NCBI GenBank assembly: GCA_964369835.1 | Contig: CAYJGE010000001.1 | Location: 290-64,289 of the forward strand | Reading direction: 5' to 3' | Length of the DNA: 64,000 bases | From: an uncultured Mailhella sp. | GTDB taxonomy: Bacteria > Desulfobacterota > Desulfovibrionia > Desulfovibrionales > Desulfovibrionaceae | Shown here: positions 13,146 to 57,308 of the stretch, piece by piece | How positions within the stretch are numbered: the first letter of the stretch is position 1 | Layout: every line of letters begins with the position of its first letter | Position numbers and translations under genes: made by a program | Notes under the pieces: generated by a model | The model's database searches: none | Told to the model about the DNA's origin: nothing | Seen by the model: only the letters and a program-made list of their open reading frames with translations

Positions 13146-13350
13146 GCACGCCATTCCGATTTTTAAAAATCATAATTATGGAGTGATTTTTGATTTTAGA
13201 TATTAAATAAAATATTAATAAATTAAAATAGTTATATTGTTTGGTAAAATGTTTTTTCAGGAAAAGGGGAAGCAATTGCTTACGTTTGAGGGGGGAAAAC
13301 TCATTTTTTTCAAAAAAATGGGGTTTCCCCCTCAATCCTGAATCACGTGC
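13146..13350 (-). mobile_element. MITE (CACG..ATTCCG terminal-inverted-repeat family), copy a
   Basis: The ends gcacgccattccgat and atcctgaatcacgtgc are inverted repeats. It is flanked by the direct repeat ctaaatct (13138-13145 and 13351-13358). The internal hairpin is gaggggggaaaac...gtttccccctc. Confidence 0.75.
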
Positions 13351-18552: not shown

Positions 18553-18884
18553 TACCTTTCCCCCTTGTGCTCGTTTACGAGCACTGTAAGGGGGGTGTCA
18601 TATTGATAAGCGAAGCGAAGAAATATGACGGGGGGCTCAGTTCCTTTAAACACTTTTTGCTCCACCTTAATAAGAAATTATTTTTTTCAGATATCTATAT
18701 GAAGAGCAAAAAGTGGGTAGTGTCATAAAATAGCGAGTAAAATAAGGCAGGCTTTCAAGAGCAAGGAAAGCGAAAAATTTTAGAGGGCGTGTACTCGAGT
18801 ACATAACCGATAAAATTTACAGCTTGACGCAGACATTGGAAGTCTGACTGGTTTACTCCTATATTTTATGACAATAAAAAACAC
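18553..18884 (+). ncRNA. S-family ~335-nt structured intergenic element, copy 1 (candidate ncRNA or structured repeat)
   Basis: Four stems: ccccttgtgctcg/cgagcac..aagggg; gtcatatt/atatgac; cactttttgctc (18651-18662)/gagcaaaaagtg (18704-18715); tgtcataaaata...tattttatgaca. Homologous copies are at 48335 and 51211. Confidence 0.5.
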
Positions 18885-18888
18885 AGCT

Positions 18889-19080
18889 TTATTCTGCAAA
18901 GCAGAATAAAGCAATGTAAAAATTGCAGAATAATGCAATGTAAAAATTGCAGAATAATGCAATGTAAAAATTGCAGAATAAAGCAATGTAAAAATTGCAG
19001 AATAATGCAATGTAAAAATTGCAGAATAAAGCAATGCAAGAATTAAGAAACATGTCATTATTCTGCAAAGCAGAATAATG
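18889..19080. repeat. Six tandem 24-bp units bracketed by two identical hairpins
   Basis: The unit gcagaataWWgcaatgtaaaaatt occurs six times (18901-19044). The hairpin ttattctgcAAAgcagaataa occurs at both ends (18889-18909 and 19058-19078). Confidence 0.9.
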
Positions 19081-29779: not shown

Positions 29780-31615
29780 ATGGAAAATAAAAAAGAAATT
29801 GACGAGTTTAATACAAGCTCTGACCCAAAATTGAATGAACAAGAAAATATAGATGCAAATTTTATCGAAATCATGAAAAAAAATTCTGAAGATGATATAA
29901 TTTTCATTGATGAAAATATGGCTTCTGAGTTTGAACAATCCAAGCAAAATGAGCAAGTTGAACAAATTGAACAGGTTGAACAAATTGAGCAAGTTGAGCA
30001 AGTTGAGCAAATTGAGCAAGTTGAACATGTTGAAGAAGTTGAACAAGAAGAAGTTGAGCAAGTTGAGCTGACTGAAAAAGAAGAACTAACGGAAATAGCT
30101 GAAAAAGAAGAGCAAGCAGAACAGGCAGAACAGGCAGAACAGGCAGAACAGGTTGAAATTGAAAAAGACCAAGATGATAAAGTTGTTGAAAATATAGAAA
30201 ATGAACAACCTTTGGAAAACGTTGAAGAAAGTTCAAATGAAAACACAAATATAAATAGTGATCAAGCAATTGAAGAAAACAAAGAGATAAGTTCGGAAGC
30301 CATTGAAATTGAGAATAAAAATGAAGAATTTATTGAAAAATATTCGGAAAATCCTTTGGAAGAAAATAGTTCTGAACAAATAATTGAAGAAGTAAAAGAA
30401 ATTGAAGAAAATGAAAATACTGCTAATATTAATTTAGAAAAACCTGAAAAACAAATCGCTCATTATGTGGAAAATGAAGTAAAAGAAGATGAAGAAGAAA
30501 ATTCCACATTTACTCAAAAATATGAATTAAACAATAACTTGGCCATAGTATTTAGATTAAGTGCCCTTGGTGATGTTGTTTTGTTAAGCGGTGTTTTTAG
30601 GTTTTGGCATGAACATTTTGGAATAAAATTTATTTTAATCAGTAAAGCAATTTTCTTGCCTTTATTTAGATATCACCCCGCTATTTTTGAAGTTTACCCC
30701 GTTGAAGAAAGGGATTTGGATAGTTTTAACTATAAAAATAAATGTAAAGAATTGGCAAAAAGATATGAAGACTATCCCTTGCTTGATTTACACGGTAATT
30801 TAAGATCCAAAACCATTTCAAGAGCATGGAGAAATTCTGTTTTTCATTATGAAAAACGTGGTTTTATACGTCGCTTGTTTGCATGGACAAAGGGTCGTTT
30901 CGGTTCAAAAAAATTACTTGAAAAAAATGTATGTCAACGCTATGCAAGCTTACTTTGCCTTGAAAATATTCCAAAAAAACTTTTAAAGCCTCAAATATTT
31001 TTAATTCCCACTGAACTTGAAAATGCAAAAAAAAGATTAAAATTATTATTTTGGAAAGAAATGACTCCGGAATACTGGGCAGATTTACCGCCCCATGCCC
31101 TTGAAATGTGGAAACAAAAACAAGAAACGGACAGCTCTGATTTGCCCAAGAAAATAATAGCCTTGCACCCCTTTGCCACCTACAAATCCAAAACATTGAC
31201 CTTGGAACAATGGTTTGAACTTGCAGAAAAAGTAAAAGAAAAGCTAGGAGTTACCCATCAAATCCTCTGGGTTGGCAAAGATACAAGTCTTGATGTGCCG
31301 GTGGGAAAAAGTTTAATCAATTTAACTTCACTTCGTGAGCTTAGTGCAATTTTGAGTAATTGTGATATTGTAATTACAGCCGATTCAGGCCCCATGCACA
31401 TAGCCAATGCCGTGGACTGTAAAATTGTTGCTCTTTTTGGTCCAACCTGCGAAGAATGGGGATTTTTCCCCGTTGGAGATAGGGTTAGAATAGTACAAAC
31501 CGAGAAAAAATGCTATTCTCTTCATGGTGATGTTGCAGACAATGTGCCAAGTTGCTTTGAGGGTTTTGACCTTGATAAAATAGTAGATAAAGCGGTTGAA
31601 CTTGCCTATAGTTAA
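29780..31615 (+). CDS. Glycosyltransferase family 9 (heptosyltransferase-like) with a ~255-aa acidic repeat-rich N-terminal extension
   Basis: The GT9 core spans LAIVFRLSALGDVVL... to ...ITADSGPMHIANAVDCKIVALFGPT. The start is set at ATG 29780 (GAGG upstream). No in-frame Met lies near the start of the GT9 core. Confidence 0.7.
   Translation: MENKKEIDEFNTSSDPKLNEQENIDANFIEIMKKNSEDDIIFIDENMASEFEQSKQNEQVEQIEQVEQIEQVEQVEQIEQVEHVEEVEQEEVEQVELTEKEELTEIAEKEEQAEQAEQAEQAEQVEIEKDQDDKVVENIENEQPLENVEESSNENTNINSDQAIEENKEISSEAIEIENKNEEFIEKYSENPLEENSSEQIIEEVKEIEENENTANINLEKPEKQIAHYVENEVKEDEEENSTFTQKYELNNNLAIVFRLSALGDVVLLSGVFRFWHEHFGIKFILISKAIFLPLFRYHPAIFEVYPVEERDLDSFNYKNKCKELAKRYEDYPLLDLHGNLRSKTISRAWRNSVFHYEKRGFIRRLFAWTKGRFGSKKLLEKNVCQRYASLLCLENIPKKLLKPQIFLIPTELENAKKRLKLLFWKEMTPEYWADLPPHALEMWKQKQETDSSDLPKKIIALHPFATYKSKTLTLEQWFELAEKVKEKLGVTHQILWVGKDTSLDVPVGKSLINLTSLRELSAILSNCDIVITADSGPMHIANAVDCKIVALFGPTCEEWGFFPVGDRVRIVQTEKKCYSLHGDVADNVPSCFEGFDLDKIVDKAVELAYS
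29951..30158 (+). repeat. In-frame 9-bp tandem repeats encoding (EQV/EQI)n and (AEQ)4
   Basis: gagcaagtt/gaacaaatt-type units span 29951-30070. gcagaacag occurs four times at 30115-30150. Confidence 0.9.
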
Positions 31616-34234: not shown

Positions 34235-34405
34235 CACGTCAATCCTTTTTTGTGTTTTTTGAGGGGGAAAACCACGTTTTTTTGAAAAAAACGAGTTTTT
34301 CCCCCTCAAACGTAAGCAATCGCTTCCCCCTTTCCTTAAAAACAAATTTTTCTAACATATTGTTTTATATATATTTTAGAAAAATAGATTTTAAAATAAT
34401 TATTT
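34235..34405 (+). mobile_element. MITE, copy c (right end truncated where it abuts the peptide/antisense module)
   Basis: Left TIR cacgtcaatcc and hairpin gagggggaaaaccacgtttttttgaaaaaaacgagtttttccccctc. Colinear with copy d up to about 34405. No right TIR is present. Confidence 0.6.
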
Positions 34406-34416
34406 TTGATTTTAAC

Positions 34417-34444
34417 TTGACTTTTATAAAGAAAGTCTTAAAAT
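34417..34444 (+). promoter_or_regulatory. Sigma70-type promoter of the putative antisense RNA (locus A)
   Basis: TTGACT-N16-TAAAAT. It is identically placed and conserved in both locus B copies (56591-56618 and 56960-56987, minus strand). Confidence 0.55.
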
Positions 34445-34450
34445 TTTAAA

Positions 34451-34615
34451 TAAGAAAAGGGCAATAAGTGCGCTAACACTTATCACCCCACGGGTAAGCT
34501 CTCTGATGTTTATAGAGTGAAGAAAACATCAAAGAAATTTTAATCGCCGCCATGAATTTGTGCGTTCATGGCGGCAAACTTCTTTAATTGTCCCCGGTCG
34601 GTTTCAGTTTTTTAT
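34451..34615 (+). ncRNA. Putative cis-antisense sRNA A, complementary to the 3' UTR and last codons of the peptide gene
   Basis: The predicted transcript contains three hairpins. The last is the perfect stem gccgccatgaa/ttcatggcggc, followed by a T-rich tract ending at tttcagttttttattt. The ends are predictions only. Confidence 0.4.
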
Positions 34616-34696
34616 TTCAAAATGCCTGCTCAAAATGGCTACAAGGATTAATCCTGCAACAACATTTGCTAAAACAGCAAGAACGAAGTCATTCAT
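34604..34696 (-). CDS. 30-aa hydrophobic peptide (type I toxin-like), locus A
   Basis: MNDFVLAVLANVVAGLILVAILSRHFEIKN. GAGGA lies 7 nt upstream. The first 16 residues are near-identical to the locus B peptide. The longer 62-aa ORF in the track is rejected by homology, because locus B has an in-frame TAA directly upstream of its ATG. Confidence 0.6.
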   Translation of the reverse strand: MNDFVLAVLANVVAGLILVAILSRHFEIKN

Positions 34697-34820
34697 AGAT
34701 TGATCCTCATTTAAAAAATTGATTCTCATCAAAAGGAACACCCATGCTCTTTTAGAATAGACATTGATTCTTTTCTCAAGTAGAAATTGCATGAAAAATG
34801 ACTAATCCTGAATTAATATT

Positions 34821-43244: not shown

Positions 43245-43440
43245 CACGTCAATCCGTTTTTGTGTTTTTTGAGAGGGAAAACCACGTTTTTTTGAAAAAA
43301 ACGAGTTTTTCCCCCTCAAACTCCCCCTTTCCTTAAAAAACAAATTTTTCTAACATATTGTTTTATAATTATTTTTAAAAAATAGATTTAAAAATAATTA
43401 ATTTTTTTTTGAAAGTAAATTTCGCAAGCGGATTGACGTG
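43245..43440 (+). mobile_element. MITE, copy d: perfect 12-bp TIRs and a 10-bp target-site duplication
   Basis: TIRs cacgtcaatccg (43245-43256) and cggattgacgtg (43429-43440). The flanking direct repeat atctgttgac is at 43235-43244 and 43441-43450. Confidence 0.85.
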
Positions 43441-43814: not shown

Positions 43815-44080
43815 CACGCCATTCCGGTTTTAAAAAAACATAATTATGGAATGATTTTTGATTTTAGGGCATTTTGGGAAAAGAATTGTCCTAAAATGCC
43901 CTAATCACTTCATTGGAGCATGGCGACATTGAAGTGCAAAAAGCAAGAATAGAAGTGGCTTTGCCGCTTCGTTAAATGATTGCTTTTTGAAAGTTATATG
44001 GGTTAGAGTAGGTTCAATTTTTATTGAAACTGCTCTAGTTCAAAAAAACGTGGTTTCCCCCCTCAATCCGGAATCACGCG
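43815..44080 (-). mobile_element. Composite MITE, copy g: MITE ends enclosing module X, with a 10-bp TSD
   Basis: Ends cacgccattccgg... and ...ccggaatcacgcg. The interior (43865-44037) is module X. The flanking direct repeat agtgactccc is at 43805-43814 and 44081-44090. Confidence 0.75.
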
Positions 44081-48334: not shown

Positions 48335-48675
48335 TACCTTTCCCCCTTGTGCTCGCTTGCGTAAGCACTGCAAGGGGGGTGTCATATTGTTTTGAGTAGC
48401 AAAAACAATATGACGGGGGGTTCAGTTCAAGCCAATCGCTTTTTGCTTCACACTATAATGGCATAAACTATTTAATCATAATTGTTTTTGACAAGCAAAA
48501 AGCGAGGTTAGTGTCATAAAATAGCGGGTAAAATAAGGCAGGCTTTCAAGAGCAAGGAAAGCGAAAAATTTTAGAGGGCGTGTACTCAAGTACATAACCG
48601 ATAAAATTTACAGCTTGACGCAGATGTTGGAAGTCTGACTGGTTTACCCCTATATTTTATGACAATAAAAAACAC
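48335..48675 (+). ncRNA. S-family structured element, copy 2
   Basis: Colinear with 18553-18884. The third stem is tcgctttttgctt (48436-48448)/aagcaaaaagcga (48493-48505), with compensatory changes relative to copy 1. Confidence 0.5.
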
Positions 48676-48817
48676 AATTTGTTTCTGCTAAGCAGAAACA
48701 AATAATAAAAAGACAATTTGATTTTGCAAAGCAAAAACAAGTAATTGAAAAAACCAACTTGATTTTGCAAAGCAAAAACAAGTTAGTGAAAACAAAACCT
48801 AATTAAATTTAAAAAAT

Positions 48818-51159: not shown

Positions 51160-51210
51160 AAATTACTTTATTCTCCCTATCTTTAAAATACATTATCCCT
51201 ACCTTATCCC

Positions 51211-51545
51211 TACCTTCTTGTGCTCGCTTGCGTAAGCACGGCAAGGGGGGTGTCATATTGCAAAGCAAAGCGACAGCAATATGACGGGGGGTTCAATTCG
51301 AGCTAATCGCTTTTTGCTTCACCTTTAACTGCATTAATCACTTAATAACTGAACTTATGGTAAGCAAAAAGCGAGGTTAGTGGCATAAAATAGCGGGTGA
51401 AATAAGGCAGGCTTTAAATAGCAAGGAAGGCGAAAATTTTTTGAGGGAGTGTACTCGAGTACATGACCGATAAAATTTACAGCCTGACGCAGATATTGGA
51501 AGTCTTACTGTTTTACCCCTATATTTTATGGCAATAAAAAAGCAC
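51211..51545 (+). ncRNA. S-family structured element, copy 3
   Basis: Colinear with copies 1 and 2. The third stem is at 51307-51319/51362-51374. Confidence 0.5.
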
Positions 51546-51674
51546 AACTTGCATCTGCAAAGCAGAGGCAAGTAAATAAAATAAATGAATGAATTAATGA
51601 CTTACTATTTGCAAAACAAAGACAAGTTAAATAATAATTAAATAAACCATTAATGATCTTAAAAGGACAAATTT

Positions 51675-55817: not shown

Positions 55818-56064
55818 CACGTGATTCCGGTTTGAGGGGGGAAACCCCATTTTTTTGAATCAATCCATAACGCTTAGTCTCACTTTGTTCGACATAAGCC
55901 GGGTGAGTTTTCCCCCCTCAAACGTAAGCAATCGCTTCCCCCCTTCCTGAAAAAACATTTTTTCAAATAACAATATAACTATTTTGATTTATTAATATTT
56001 TATTTAATGTCTAAAATCAAAGATCATTCCATAATTATGTTTTTTTAAACCGGAATGGAGTGCT
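55818..56064 (+). mobile_element. MITE, copy f: 9-bp TSD, inserted into a D-family repeat tail
   Basis: Ends cacgtgattccggttt and aaaccggaatggagtgc. The flanking direct repeat tgcctttct is at 55809-55817 and 56065-56073. Confidence 0.8.
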
Positions 56065-56130
56065 GCCTTTCTGTTTTTATTTCGTTAACCTACATTTGTA
56101 ACTATTCGATATATCAAAAAAACAAAAGCG

Positions 56131-56335
56131 GTGTCATTGCGAGGACGAAGCCCTTAAGGGCTGAGGACGTGGCAATCTTGGTGTTAAAGGAAAGATAAAA
56201 AAAGTTTTTAAGTTCCCGATTGTACGCCAAGATTGCCACACTCGCTTCACTCGTTCGCACACTGTTTAAGTGGGAGATTGCTTTATCAACAAAATAGGGC
56301 GCTTCACTCATTCGCAATAACTGCCAATATTTTTA
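56131..56335 (+). repeat. D-family long-hairpin repeat, copy 3
   Basis: Termini gtcattgcgagg... and ...ttcgcaataactgcc. Arms gtggcaatcttgg (56169-56181) and ccaagattgccac (56227-56239). Confidence 0.8.
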
Positions 56336-56424
56336 TTACCTTAAAAATCAACGTACATTGCAAATTGGAATAAGGTATGTTAAAGGAAAAACTAGAAAAA
56401 CATATCAAAACAACACATTGTTTT

Positions 56425-56584
56425 AATAAACTAAATCGGCCGGGGCAATTAAAGAAGTCTGCCGCCATGAAACAGCAACTTCACAGCGGCGATTAAGATT
56501 TCTTTGATGTTTTGCAATCCTATAAACATCAAAGGGCTTACCCGTTGGGGTGATAAGTGCACTAACACTTATTGCCCTTTTCTT
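56425..56584 (-). ncRNA. Putative antisense sRNA B1 (orphan copy; promoter at 56591-56618)
   Basis: A near-identical direct repeat of 56795-56953 with the same TTGACT-N16-TAAAAT promoter. No intact peptide ORF is convergent with it. Confidence 0.35.
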
Positions 56585-56640
56585 AATTTAAATTTTAAAT
56601 CTTTCTTTACAAAAGTCAAGTTAAAATCAAAGTACGCTTG

Positions 56641-56669
56641 CTTGAAAAATTTCTGCAAACTTGTTATAA
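56641..56669 (+). promoter_or_regulatory. Sigma70-type promoter of peptide gene B
   Basis: TTGAAA-N17-TATAAA, about 55 nt upstream of ATG 56724. The homologous position in locus A is TTGAGA-N17-TCTAAA. Confidence 0.5.
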
Positions 56670-56723
56670 AAAAGTTCGGGTATTCCTTTTTGATGAGAAT
56701 TTATTCTTAAAGGAGGAATAATC

Positions 56724-56795
56724 TATGAGTGACTTCGTTCTTGCTGTTTTGGCAAATGTTGTTGCAGGATTTATTCTTGCACGCATTTTGAAATA
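56724..56795 (+). CDS. 23-aa hydrophobic peptide (type I toxin-like), locus B
   Basis: MSDFVLAVLANVVAGFILARILK. Strong SD AAAGGAGG 8 nt upstream. An in-frame TAA directly precedes the ATG. It is too short to appear in the ORF track. Confidence 0.6.
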
Positions 56796-56953
56796 AAAAC
56801 TAAATCGGCCGGGGCAATTAAAGAAGTCTGCCGCCATGAAGCAGCAACTTCACAGCGGCGATTAAGATTTCTTTGATGTTTTGCAATCCTATAAACATCA
56901 AAGGGCTTACCCGTTGGGGTGATAAGTGCACTAACACTTATTGCCCTTTTCTT
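56795..56953 (-). ncRNA. Putative cis-antisense sRNA B2 (promoter at 56960-56987)
   Basis: TTGACT-N16-TAAAAT on the minus strand. In the hairpin gccgcugugaag/cuucauggcggc the two non-Watson-Crick positions are G.U only in the antisense orientation. Confidence 0.4.
56916..56952 (+). terminator. Intrinsic terminator of peptide mRNA B
   Basis: gggugauaagug-cacuaa-cacuuauugccc followed by uuuucuu. The stem has two G.U pairs that would be A/C mismatches on the other strand. The locus A equivalent is 34452-34488 (minus strand). Confidence 0.5.
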
Positions 56954-57085
56954 AATTTAAATTTTAAATCTTTCTTTACAAAAGTCAAGTTAAAATCAAA
57001 AGTAAGTTTATTTGGACGCATCTAATTTGCGATGTAAACTGATTTGATTTTTATGTTAACATAATATATTGATTGTATTGATAAT

Positions 57086-57115
57086 AAAAAAGCACTGATT
57101 ACTCAGTGCTTTTTT
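57086..57115. terminator. Intrinsic terminator downstream of the ferredoxin gene (bidirectional form)
   Basis: aaaaa-agcactga-ttac-tcagtgct-ttttt. Confidence 0.8.
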
Positions 57116-57119
57116 AAAA

Positions 57120-57308
57120 TTATACTTCGTCAATTACAATGGCGTCGTGTTCACAAACACCAGTGCATGACTCACAGCCAAGACATTCTTCAGGTGCTAT
57201 AGGATCACATTTACCATCTGCCATTTCGTAAACATTTACAGGACAGATGTCAACACATTCACCACAGCCCACACATTTATCTGTGTCTACTTGAACTGAA
57301 TAACTCAT
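57120..57308 (-). CDS. fdx: Small 4Fe-4S ferredoxin (Desulfovibrio type)
   Basis: 62 aa with CVGCGECVDICP and CLGCESCTGVCEHDAI. GGAGG SD. Confidence 0.9.
   Translation of the reverse strand: MSYSVQVDTDKCVGCGECVDICPVNVYEMADGKCDPIAPEECLGCESCTGVCEHDAIVIDEV

Follow-up and report, generated by a model that had tools for sequence, protein, structure and literature searches.

A probable type I toxin-antitoxin module, in two full copies and one orphan antitoxin copy, in the genome of an uncultured Mailhella species

Contig CAYJGE010000001.1 of the uncultured Mailhella sp. assembly GCA_964369835.1 contains, in a stretch of 64,000 nucleotides (nt) (positions 290 to 64,289 of the forward strand, called here the window, whose coordinates are used throughout), a small module present twice in full, at locus A and locus B, and once in part. 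Locus B, to which most of this work is devoted, spans window 56640-57000 and brings together a promoter, a strong Shine-Dalgarno (SD) sequence, an open reading frame (ORF) for a hydrophobic peptide of 23 amino acids (aa), a 3′ untranslated region (3′UTR) with three hairpins, and a convergent promoter. An initial annotation, made from the sequence alone, had proposed a functional two-RNA module and had left its class unnamed; our analysis points to a type I toxin-antitoxin (TA) module, and the words toxin and antitoxin are used below in this putative sense. The features of locus B are the following.

56642..56670, plus strand: predicted promoter of the toxin mRNA, read from the sequence, with TTGAAA (56642-56647), a 17-nt spacer and TATAAA (56665-56670)
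56681..56691, plus strand: anti-SD segment of the 5′UTR, UAUUCCUUUUU, predicted to pair with the SD region
56710-56717, plus strand: near-perfect SD, AAAGGAGG, 7 nt 5′ of the ATG
56725-56793, stop codon 56794-56796, plus strand: toxin ORF (23 aa and stop), encoding MSDFVLAVLANVVAGFILARILK, a single hydrophobic helix
56820..56954, minus strand: predicted antitoxin RNA of about 130-135 nt, placed from promoter and terminator positions, fully complementary to the toxin 3′UTR
56830..56859 (arms 56830-56841/56848-56859): hairpin H1, predicted minus-strand terminator of the antisense RNA found by a terminator scan, 13 pairs and then AGACUUCUUU
56871..56903: hairpin H2, with an 11-bp stem and an 11-nt loop that differs from that of locus A; its 3′ arm overlaps 56896-56913
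56916..56957 (arms 56916-56928/56935-56947), plus strand: hairpin H3 and T-run, intrinsic terminator of the toxin mRNA, followed by TTTCTTAATT
56961..56988, minus strand: predicted antitoxin promoter TTGACT-N16-TAAAAT, with 10/12 consensus matches and a predicted transcription start site (TSS) near 56954

On the toxin side, both the TTGAAA-N17-TATAAA promoter and the strong SD reported by the initial annotation are present, and the -10 box has TGT just 5′ of it, which gives an extended -10-like element. This promoter is missing from the output of our consensus scan because the scan rule demands that the second hexamer end in T. The toxin mRNA is predicted to start near 56677 and to be about 280 nt long. 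The peptide ORF is also present, one base away from where it had first been placed (56725-56796 with its stop codon, instead of 56724-56795). In minimum free energy and partition-function folds, the SD core of locus B has a probability of being unpaired of 0.005-0.19 and is mostly paired in every modelled state; the corresponding values are 0.03-0.2 at locus A, which shows the same overall fold. Moreover, the 5′ end of the locus B mRNA (CGGGUA...UUUGAUG) is complementary to positions 56896-56913 of the 3′UTR, with which it is predicted to form a 5′-3′ helix, and this pairing is kept in locus A through an A-U to G.U change. According to these models, the structure of the toxin mRNA would limit translation in both loci, by SD sequestration and by the 5′-3′ helix.

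On the antisense side, the predicted TSS (~56954) lies inside the T-tract of the sense terminator, and essentially the whole 3′UTR would therefore find its complement in the antisense RNA, with a predicted sense/antisense overlap of about 133 nt. Between the end of the predicted RNA and the stop codon there remain about 25 nt, and the RNA would reach the ORF only by readthrough of H1, which on the minus strand (56859..56830) is followed by AGACTTCTTT in the consensus scan. The complement of H3 makes the 5′ stem-loop of this RNA, and the H3 loop has a YUNR-type tetranucleotide on both strands. The antitoxin RNA of locus B folds at -53.3 kcal/mol (z -6.7) and, at both loci, the two predicted RNAs fold far better than shuffled sequences (z -5.2 to -6.7). 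In the region, six terminator-like sites are observed vs 0.6 expected in shuffles. Comparing the ORFs of both loci, we found no antisense ORF common to A and B. Rfam gave no match at gathering score in the window, and a permissive scan of 56300-57150 gave chance-level matches only.

We looked for a second interaction site of the Fst or SprA1 type at the SD, and rejected it: the duplex energies obtained are no better than those of shuffles. The antisense RNA thus has no extra complementarity to the 5′ part of the mRNA, which leaves the 3′UTR overlap as the interaction site, as in TxpA/RatA-type systems.

The second full module and the partial copy are the following.

34390..34800, minus strand: locus A, full paralogous module, with the toxin promoter TTGAGA-N17-TCTAAA at 34779..34751 and the antisense promoter at 34417-34444 (+)
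34696..34604 (ATG 34696), minus strand: ORF of locus A, 30 aa, MNDFVLAVLANVVAGLILVAILSRHFEIKN
34575..34546 and 34489..34458, minus strand: hairpins H1 and H3 of locus A
56428..56631, minus strand: orphan copy of the 3′ module, 203/204 identical to 56797-57000, without toxin promoter or ORF

Loci A and B can be aligned over about 365 nt, from the toxin -35 box to just beyond the antisense -35 box (E 5e-43), and their flanks are unrelated. A six-frame search of the window for relatives of the peptide returned locus A only and bore out that 14 of the first 16 residues (14/16) are identical between the two peptides. The orphan, which the initial annotation had missed, adjoins the toxin promoter of locus B on its upstream side and retains a complete predicted antitoxin gene, i.e., promoter (56619..56592), hairpins and terminator (56490..56461); on its upstream side, some resemblance to the end of the ORF persists over about 27 nt, and it is therefore a module from which the toxin promoter and the ORF have been lost. 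In the two full copies, each strand has a promoter and a terminator-like hairpin, the antisense pair being found also in the orphan. The hexamers and spacing of the antisense promoter are the same at 56619..56592 (orphan) and at 34417-34444 (locus A) as in locus B. The initial annotation, which had called this promoter identical in all copies and put it at 56960-56987, one base off, was right for the hexamers and the spacing; the spacer itself differs at three positions between A and B.

The differences between A and B are very unevenly distributed. Indeed, they affect 4 of the 72 stem positions, 10 of the 23 loop positions (plus indels), none of the 12 positions of the antisense promoter hexamers and 4 positions in the first 18 codons, and the 5′UTR and toxin promoter region are far more diverged. 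In the H3 loop, B has CACTAA (56929-56934) and A has TTAGCG (34471-34476), a difference at 6/6 positions in direct comparison. The reverse complement of the A loop is CGCTAA, one base from that of B, and the H3 stem arms are identical in the two loci; a single inversion of the hairpin loop better explains this difference than six substitutions would. As to the peptides, the shorter length of B compared to A stems from the loss of 13 nt between short direct repeats, and the resulting frameshift leads to an early stop codon.

This contrast between conserved stems and diverged loops is a stronger signal than the wobble pattern on which the initial annotation had relied. Its description of the hairpins was nonetheless confirmed. 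In H3, the stem of the mRNA terminator, three of the 13 pairs of locus B (G.U, U.G and G.U) exist in sense only and become A/C mismatches in antisense, and the sense energies are the better ones (-17.1 vs -13.7 kcal/mol in B, -18.4 vs -11.6 in A). H1 of locus B has two C/A mismatches in sense and is fully paired in antisense, with two G.U pairs (antisense -21.0 vs sense -14.0 kcal/mol), and H1 of locus A is perfectly Watson-Crick on both strands. The single difference of the orphan (56472 A vs 56841 G) leads again to a G.U pair in antisense only (sense -11.2, antisense -16.4 kcal/mol). H2 of locus A contains one pair that is U.G in sense and C/A in antisense (-9.9 vs -6.0 kcal/mol), a change in favour of the sense strand; there is therefore no global strand bias, each terminator being better on the strand that it terminates. 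The direction of the wobble pattern is correct, but it is statistically thin (about 6 positions in 3 copies) and leaves both-strand transcription a prediction. It is coherent but weak because it was read from the data afterwards and two of the changes are adjacent; alone, we take it as suggestive, not significant on its own.

These observations bear on the possibility that the copies are a passive intergenic repeat, i.e., palindromic DNA similar to repetitive extragenic palindromes (REP) or miniature inverted-repeat transposable elements (MITE), in which hairpins, promoter-like hexamers and ORF would be incidental. The genome is indeed rich in other intergenic repeat families, some of which abut loci A and B, and the module has three copies only. 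However, the repeated unit spans exactly promoter to promoter, its stems are conserved when its loops vary, its wobble pairs occur on the strand where each hairpin would terminate, and its ORF is homologous to a toxin family, as described below. Also, no terminal inverted repeats were noticed, a remark made with no search aimed at such repeats. We hold this explanation to be very improbable.

The homology of the peptides, a distant one, is with type I toxins of Clostridioides difficile. In NCBIfam, the sole match of each peptide is NF047374 'CD_typeI_toxin' (type I toxin-antitoxin system toxin), with E values of 0.0038 (B) and 0.0021 (A) and scores of 17.6 and 18.4 bits, residues 1-19 and 1-23 aligning on positions 1-19 and 1-22 of the 51 of the profile. 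The best PHROG for both is phrog_738 (E 0.001-0.004; 0.0044 for B), which the C. difficile toxins match at 1e-20 to 1e-28. Among 330 small ORFs of the C. difficile phage phiCD119, the top-scoring one against both peptides is an SD-preceded, unannotated ORF at 28805 (MSEFLLGVLASLTASFITYIISRKVKSHS...), and BLASTP against this toxin ORF gives 46% identity (E 2e-5). This ORF and eight other homologues from C. difficile phages (47-53 aa) are true members of NF047374, with 79-94 bits. We built our own toxin hidden Markov model (HMM) from these nine phage toxins. Against it, the two peptides rank 1 and 2 among the 1818 stop-to-stop segments in the window, with E values of 5.9e-5 and, for B, 1.4e-4, and none of 2000 composition-preserving shuffles of each reaches the real score (22.2 bits vs a maximum of 14.2, and 19.1 vs 10.3). 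Comparison of the two peptides with eight C. difficile toxins by hhalign gives a probability of 94.5% and an E value of 7.7e-8 over 22 columns. The common motif, M-x-[DNE]-F-[LV]-L-x-[VI]-[LI]-A-x-[VLI]-x-A-[SG]-[LF]-I, corresponds to the N-terminal membrane helix. Pfam and PDB sequence searches with both peptides returned no match. In our view, homology of the N-terminal helix with that of the C. difficile type I toxins is probable; formally, the peptides stay outside the family because their score is under its cut-off and its Lys-rich tail is absent.

The phage homologues deserve a remark of their own. The one of phiCD119 (NC_007917, 28805-28948), a C. difficile type I toxin homologue of 47 aa with a strong SD, is unannotated in the RefSeq record, and the toxin homologue is likewise unannotated in the records of phages phiC2, phiCDHM19, CDMH1 and CD1801.

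Another match to the toxin HMM, LIFYLISKIKNHS (E 0.007-0.05, in the middle of the profile), was judged to be due to chance: it falls in an AT-rich, promoter-like part of a repeat and has no ATG or SD. It is the one-frame translation of a repeat ending CTAAAATCAAARATCAYTCCATAATTATG...CCGGAATGG, found at window 13147-13199, 43815-43867 and 56013-56065. That such a match lies beside a toxin homologue is an odd coincidence.

Homology to toxins has to be weighed against a milder role, in which the gene would encode a non-toxic small membrane protein modulating a membrane protein or transporter, its level being tuned by a cis-antisense regulator, with no addiction or killing. This would suit the chromosomal context, where the neighbours are housekeeping genes (for pyrophosphatase, uvrC, moaA, thrC, kdsB and topA) and not a prophage, a plasmid or a CRISPR array, and would also suit a peptide so short and devoid of a charged tail. 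We nevertheless judge it improbable, since the homology is specific to a family with members proven toxic (PMC5961336, PMC7699646) and since silencing in several layers (anti-SD, 5′-3′ closure, extra antitoxin copy) is typical for harmful products.

We consider that locus B, and likewise locus A, is a type I TA module, with a probability of about 75%. This reading rests on the anatomy of the sequence, the homology of the peptides, the predicted folds and the conservation of stems compared to loops. A functional two-RNA module and not a passive repeat, as the initial annotation had put it, is the best explanation of the promoters and terminators on both strands, of the stem and loop conservation, of the toxin homology and of sizes and geometry that match those of known systems. 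The toxin, divergent and without a tail, would probably belong to the C. difficile toxin family or be a sister to it, in a host where it was unexpected.

Several observations weigh against this assignment. The scores obtained with the family (18-22 bits) are well under the curated 60-bit cut-off of NF047374, although a peptide of 23-30 aa is probably unable to reach 60 bits on a profile of 51 positions. The Lys-rich tail is absent: B ends in ...ARILK and A in ...SRHFEIKN, both stopping where the tail of the family begins (SRHF-IKN of A loosely parallels SKLFRQVKN of the family, then stops), and at such a length without a tail the peptides could be inactive remnants. The toxin -10 box is non-canonical in locus B (TATAAA) and weak in locus A (TCTAAA), whose SD is also weaker, and on the antisense strand H1 is followed by an imperfect U-tract (AGACUUCUUUAAUUG). 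In the models, binding of the antisense RNA lowers SD accessibility in B (0.19 to 0.005), a change that A does not show (0.03 to 0.07); we therefore rejected a robust switch in which antisense binding closes the SD, and a translational effect of this binding, limited to B, lacks consistent support. Both transcripts are predictions, transcription of each strand being read from its signals. Finally, no other copy was found in any of the collections searched (genomes, metagenomes, viral contigs, plasmids, phages, proteins).

Some of these points would fit a relic type I TA system in decay. In that scenario, the toxin would have been cut to 30 and then to 23 aa, losing its charged tail and its toxicity, and mainly the antisense/3′UTR unit would persist, through drift, gene conversion or as harmless "anti-addiction" copies. 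The end of both peptides at the place where the C. difficile family continues into its Lys-rich tail, the 13-nt deletion that takes B to an early stop relative to A, the orphan at 56428-56631, already without promoter and ORF, and the weaker -10 and SD of locus A all go in this direction. Yet both full copies have an intact ORF, the SD of B is near-perfect, and little has changed across distant loci in the first 16 codons, the SD or the start context while the 5′UTR and promoter spacers have diverged. Among other proven type I toxins, Ibs, for example, has about 19 aa and no charged tail. In C. difficile itself, functional toxins of 34-35 aa exist (PMC7699646). A relic seems to us unlikely, and an active type I TA module remains the reading that we prefer.

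The mechanism that we propose for such a module is as follows. A sigma-70-type promoter would produce an mRNA of about 280 nt encoding the hydrophobic peptide (23 aa, or 30 aa at locus A), which, by analogy, would insert in the inner membrane, damage it and arrest growth when overproduced. The primary mRNA would be poorly translatable, its 5′ anti-SD pairing with AAAGGAGG and its 5′ end with the 3′UTR. From the convergent promoter, just past the mRNA terminator, an antisense RNA of about 130 nt would be made, ending at H1 and perfectly complementary to the 3′UTR. The pairing of the two RNAs would probably begin with loop-loop contacts at the three hairpins; YUNR loops are tied to fast antisense pairing. 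The resulting long duplex would be expected to trigger RNase III-type decay and may also hold the mRNA in its SD-closed form. The orphan would act as a second, nearly identical antitoxin gene and double the antitoxin dose for toxin B. This mechanism is modelled on the C. difficile and B. subtilis systems, and both-strand transcription, toxicity, duplex decay and any physiological role are inferred.

The surroundings of locus B are made of housekeeping genes: Na+-pyrophosphatase, uvrC, an Fe-alcohol dehydrogenase (Fe-ADH), moaA, MOSC/MoaB, ferredoxin, thrC, kdsB and topA-rnhA. The G+C content is 36%. The thrC product is 78% identical to that of the metagenome-assembled genome GCA_964369905.1, 71% to that of Taurinivorans muris and 64-66% to those of Bilophila and Mailhella, which points to a host that is a low-GC Desulfovibrionaceae relative, kdsB fitting a diderm. 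In three related contigs (thrC 75-78% identical), thrC-fdx is followed by sdh/frd genes, without any module or toxin-HMM match, which places locus B at a non-syntenic junction; on 52 kb of related genomes, the toxin HMM found nothing (E about 1 or worse). Rfam detected no CRISPR repeat family in the window.

We searched widely for further copies. In the window, nhmmer returned the three known copies only. No further copy was found in genome contigs, scanned with the 24-mer of the antisense promoter and a back-translated peptide pattern, or in metagenomes. There was none in viral contigs, where 108 stretches fit the peptide pattern and none passed tblastn with the 30-aa query. In plasmids and phages, blastn and tblastn gave only 45-nt AT-rich chance matches to Bacillus phages. 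At the protein level, phmmer with the 30-aa peptide against 1.84 billion representatives gave one spurious 730-aa match only, word-indexed searches with the concatenated peptides and with spurious ORFs covering the module were empty, and neither peptide was found in a collection of 15 billion proteins. A literature search found no link between type I TA and Desulfovibrio.

The window contains other repeats. A family of about 240 nt occurs between genes at 25318-25528, 34235-34424, 43245-43422 and 55820-56049, and on the minus strand at 13200-13350; in it, a long inverted repeat with a G/C core (TTTGAGGGGGAAAAC ... GTTTTTCCCCCTCAAACGTAAGCAATCGCTTCCCCC) precedes an AT-rich stretch that resembles a promoter. 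One copy abuts locus A, and the orphan of locus B has another about 400 nt upstream. A third repeat family (18580-18920, 48337-48711 and 51208-51580) is 77-91% identical over 213 nt, starts near AGCACTGYAAGGGGGGTGTCATATTG and may be another small-RNA or regulatory element. Behind one of its copies, six tandem 24-nt units (GCAGAATAAWGCAATGTAAAAATT) are found at 18877-19068. Two ORFs can also be mentioned: one of 621 aa (29750-31615), in which 9-nt tandem repeats at 29919-30164 encode a low-complexity stretch (E-Q-V/I)n, and one of 1042 aa (60080-63208), which fuses a DNA topoisomerase I (residues 4-622) to an RNase HI domain (residues 889-1032).

In the literature consulted, type I TA systems are described from Proteobacteria, Firmicutes and Tenericutes only, to which a cyanobacterial candidate was added in 2025 (PMC12390103), and T1TAdb lists the 3′-overlap layout for Gram-positive families only (PMC8594479). 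These modules are rarely annotated, and the two peptides are an annotation gap of this kind. If our reading is true, a homologous module in a Desulfovibrionaceae relative widens the range of the C. difficile family and points to exchange between gut Firmicutes and relatives of sulfate reducers. Naturally minimal toxins of 23 and 30 aa would be useful for asking which part of the peptide toxicity needs. Moreover, the A/B pair offers a natural test of antitoxin specificity, because the stems are conserved while all three loops differ, one of them being inverted. A more tentative scenario, possible but not one that we would favour at present, is that a C. difficile-type TA system crossed phyla into diderm gut Desulfovibrionaceae, kept its 'Gram-positive' 3′-overlap layout and evolved minimal tail-less toxins of 23-30 aa. 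The paralogues would then maybe be insulated from each other by the divergence of their loops, including the inversion of the H3 loop, through which the loop of the non-cognate antitoxin would have the sense of the target loop and not be complementary to it; the orphan would bring extra protection.

Among known systems, hok/sok and AapA1/IsoA1 are type I TA systems of Gram-negatives. Their primary transcript is held inert by a long-distance 5′-3′ contact together with SD sequestration, and recognition involves a YUNR-type loop. The 5′-3′ interaction, the SD sequestration and the YUNR-type loop are found here as predicted features, but the antisense RNAs of hok/sok and AapA1/IsoA1 lie inside the mRNA and target its 5′ region or the ORF, activation occurs by 3′ trimming, and there is no homology. 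Fst/RNAII (par of pAD1) and SprA1/SprA1as are similar to the present module in that the antisense overlaps the 3′UTR/terminator of the toxin only, and not the ORF (PMC8594479). However, their functional pairing takes place at the 5′ translation-initiation region, outside the overlap, where we found none above shuffles, and there is no peptide homology (no Pfam match here).

TxpA/RatA, BsrG/SR4 and BsrE/SR5 of Bacillus subtilis are 3′-overlapping convergent type I TA systems of Gram-positives (PMC8594479). As predicted here, their antisense RNA forms a duplex with the 3′ part of the mRNA of a small hydrophobic toxin, and this duplex triggers RNase III decay. Pairing of SR4 also changes the mRNA structure and tightens the sequestration of the ribosome-binding site (RBS). 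These systems differ from ours by the lack of sequence homology and by antisense RNAs that generally overlap the end of the ORF; no Rfam antitoxin matches here.

The closest systems are CD2517.1-RCd8, CD2907.1-RCd9, CD0956.2-RCd10 and CD0977.1-RCd11 of C. difficile, with their phage homologues (NF047374, PHROG 738). Their toxins are membrane proteins and stop growth when overexpressed, with rescue by the cognate antitoxin only (PMC5961336, PMC6563280, PMC7699646); the toxin mRNAs have about 300 nt, the major convergent antitoxins 134-140 nt with an overlap of 131-134 nt, and the RBS is sequestered (PMC5961336). The family has been reported without homologues beyond C. difficile and Paeniclostridium sordellii elements (PMC6563280, PMC7699646), and we found no similarity at the nucleotide level between loci A or B and the C. 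difficile modules. Unlike them, the peptides here have 23 and 30 aa instead of 34-53 aa and no Lys-rich tail, the predicted short antisense RNA covers the 3′UTR only and not the end of the ORF, an orphan antitoxin copy exists, the host is a diderm Desulfovibrionaceae relative and not a clostridium, and the module is located among housekeeping genes and not in prophages or plasmids or beside CRISPR arrays. The likenesses are extensive. Like type I systems generally, loci A and B have a small hydrophobic ORF (<60 aa) served by its own promoter and SD. With the C. difficile systems in particular they share the N-terminal membrane-helix motif, a strong SD placed 7-8 nt ahead of the ATG, several paralogous copies per genome and, in the predicted dimensions, an mRNA of about 280-300 nt with a convergent antisense RNA of about 130-140 nt overlapping its 3′ end over about 130 nt. 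Indeed, the three C. difficile phage toxin mRNAs that we folded display a long 5′-3′ closing helix and an anti-SD, as do loci A and B.

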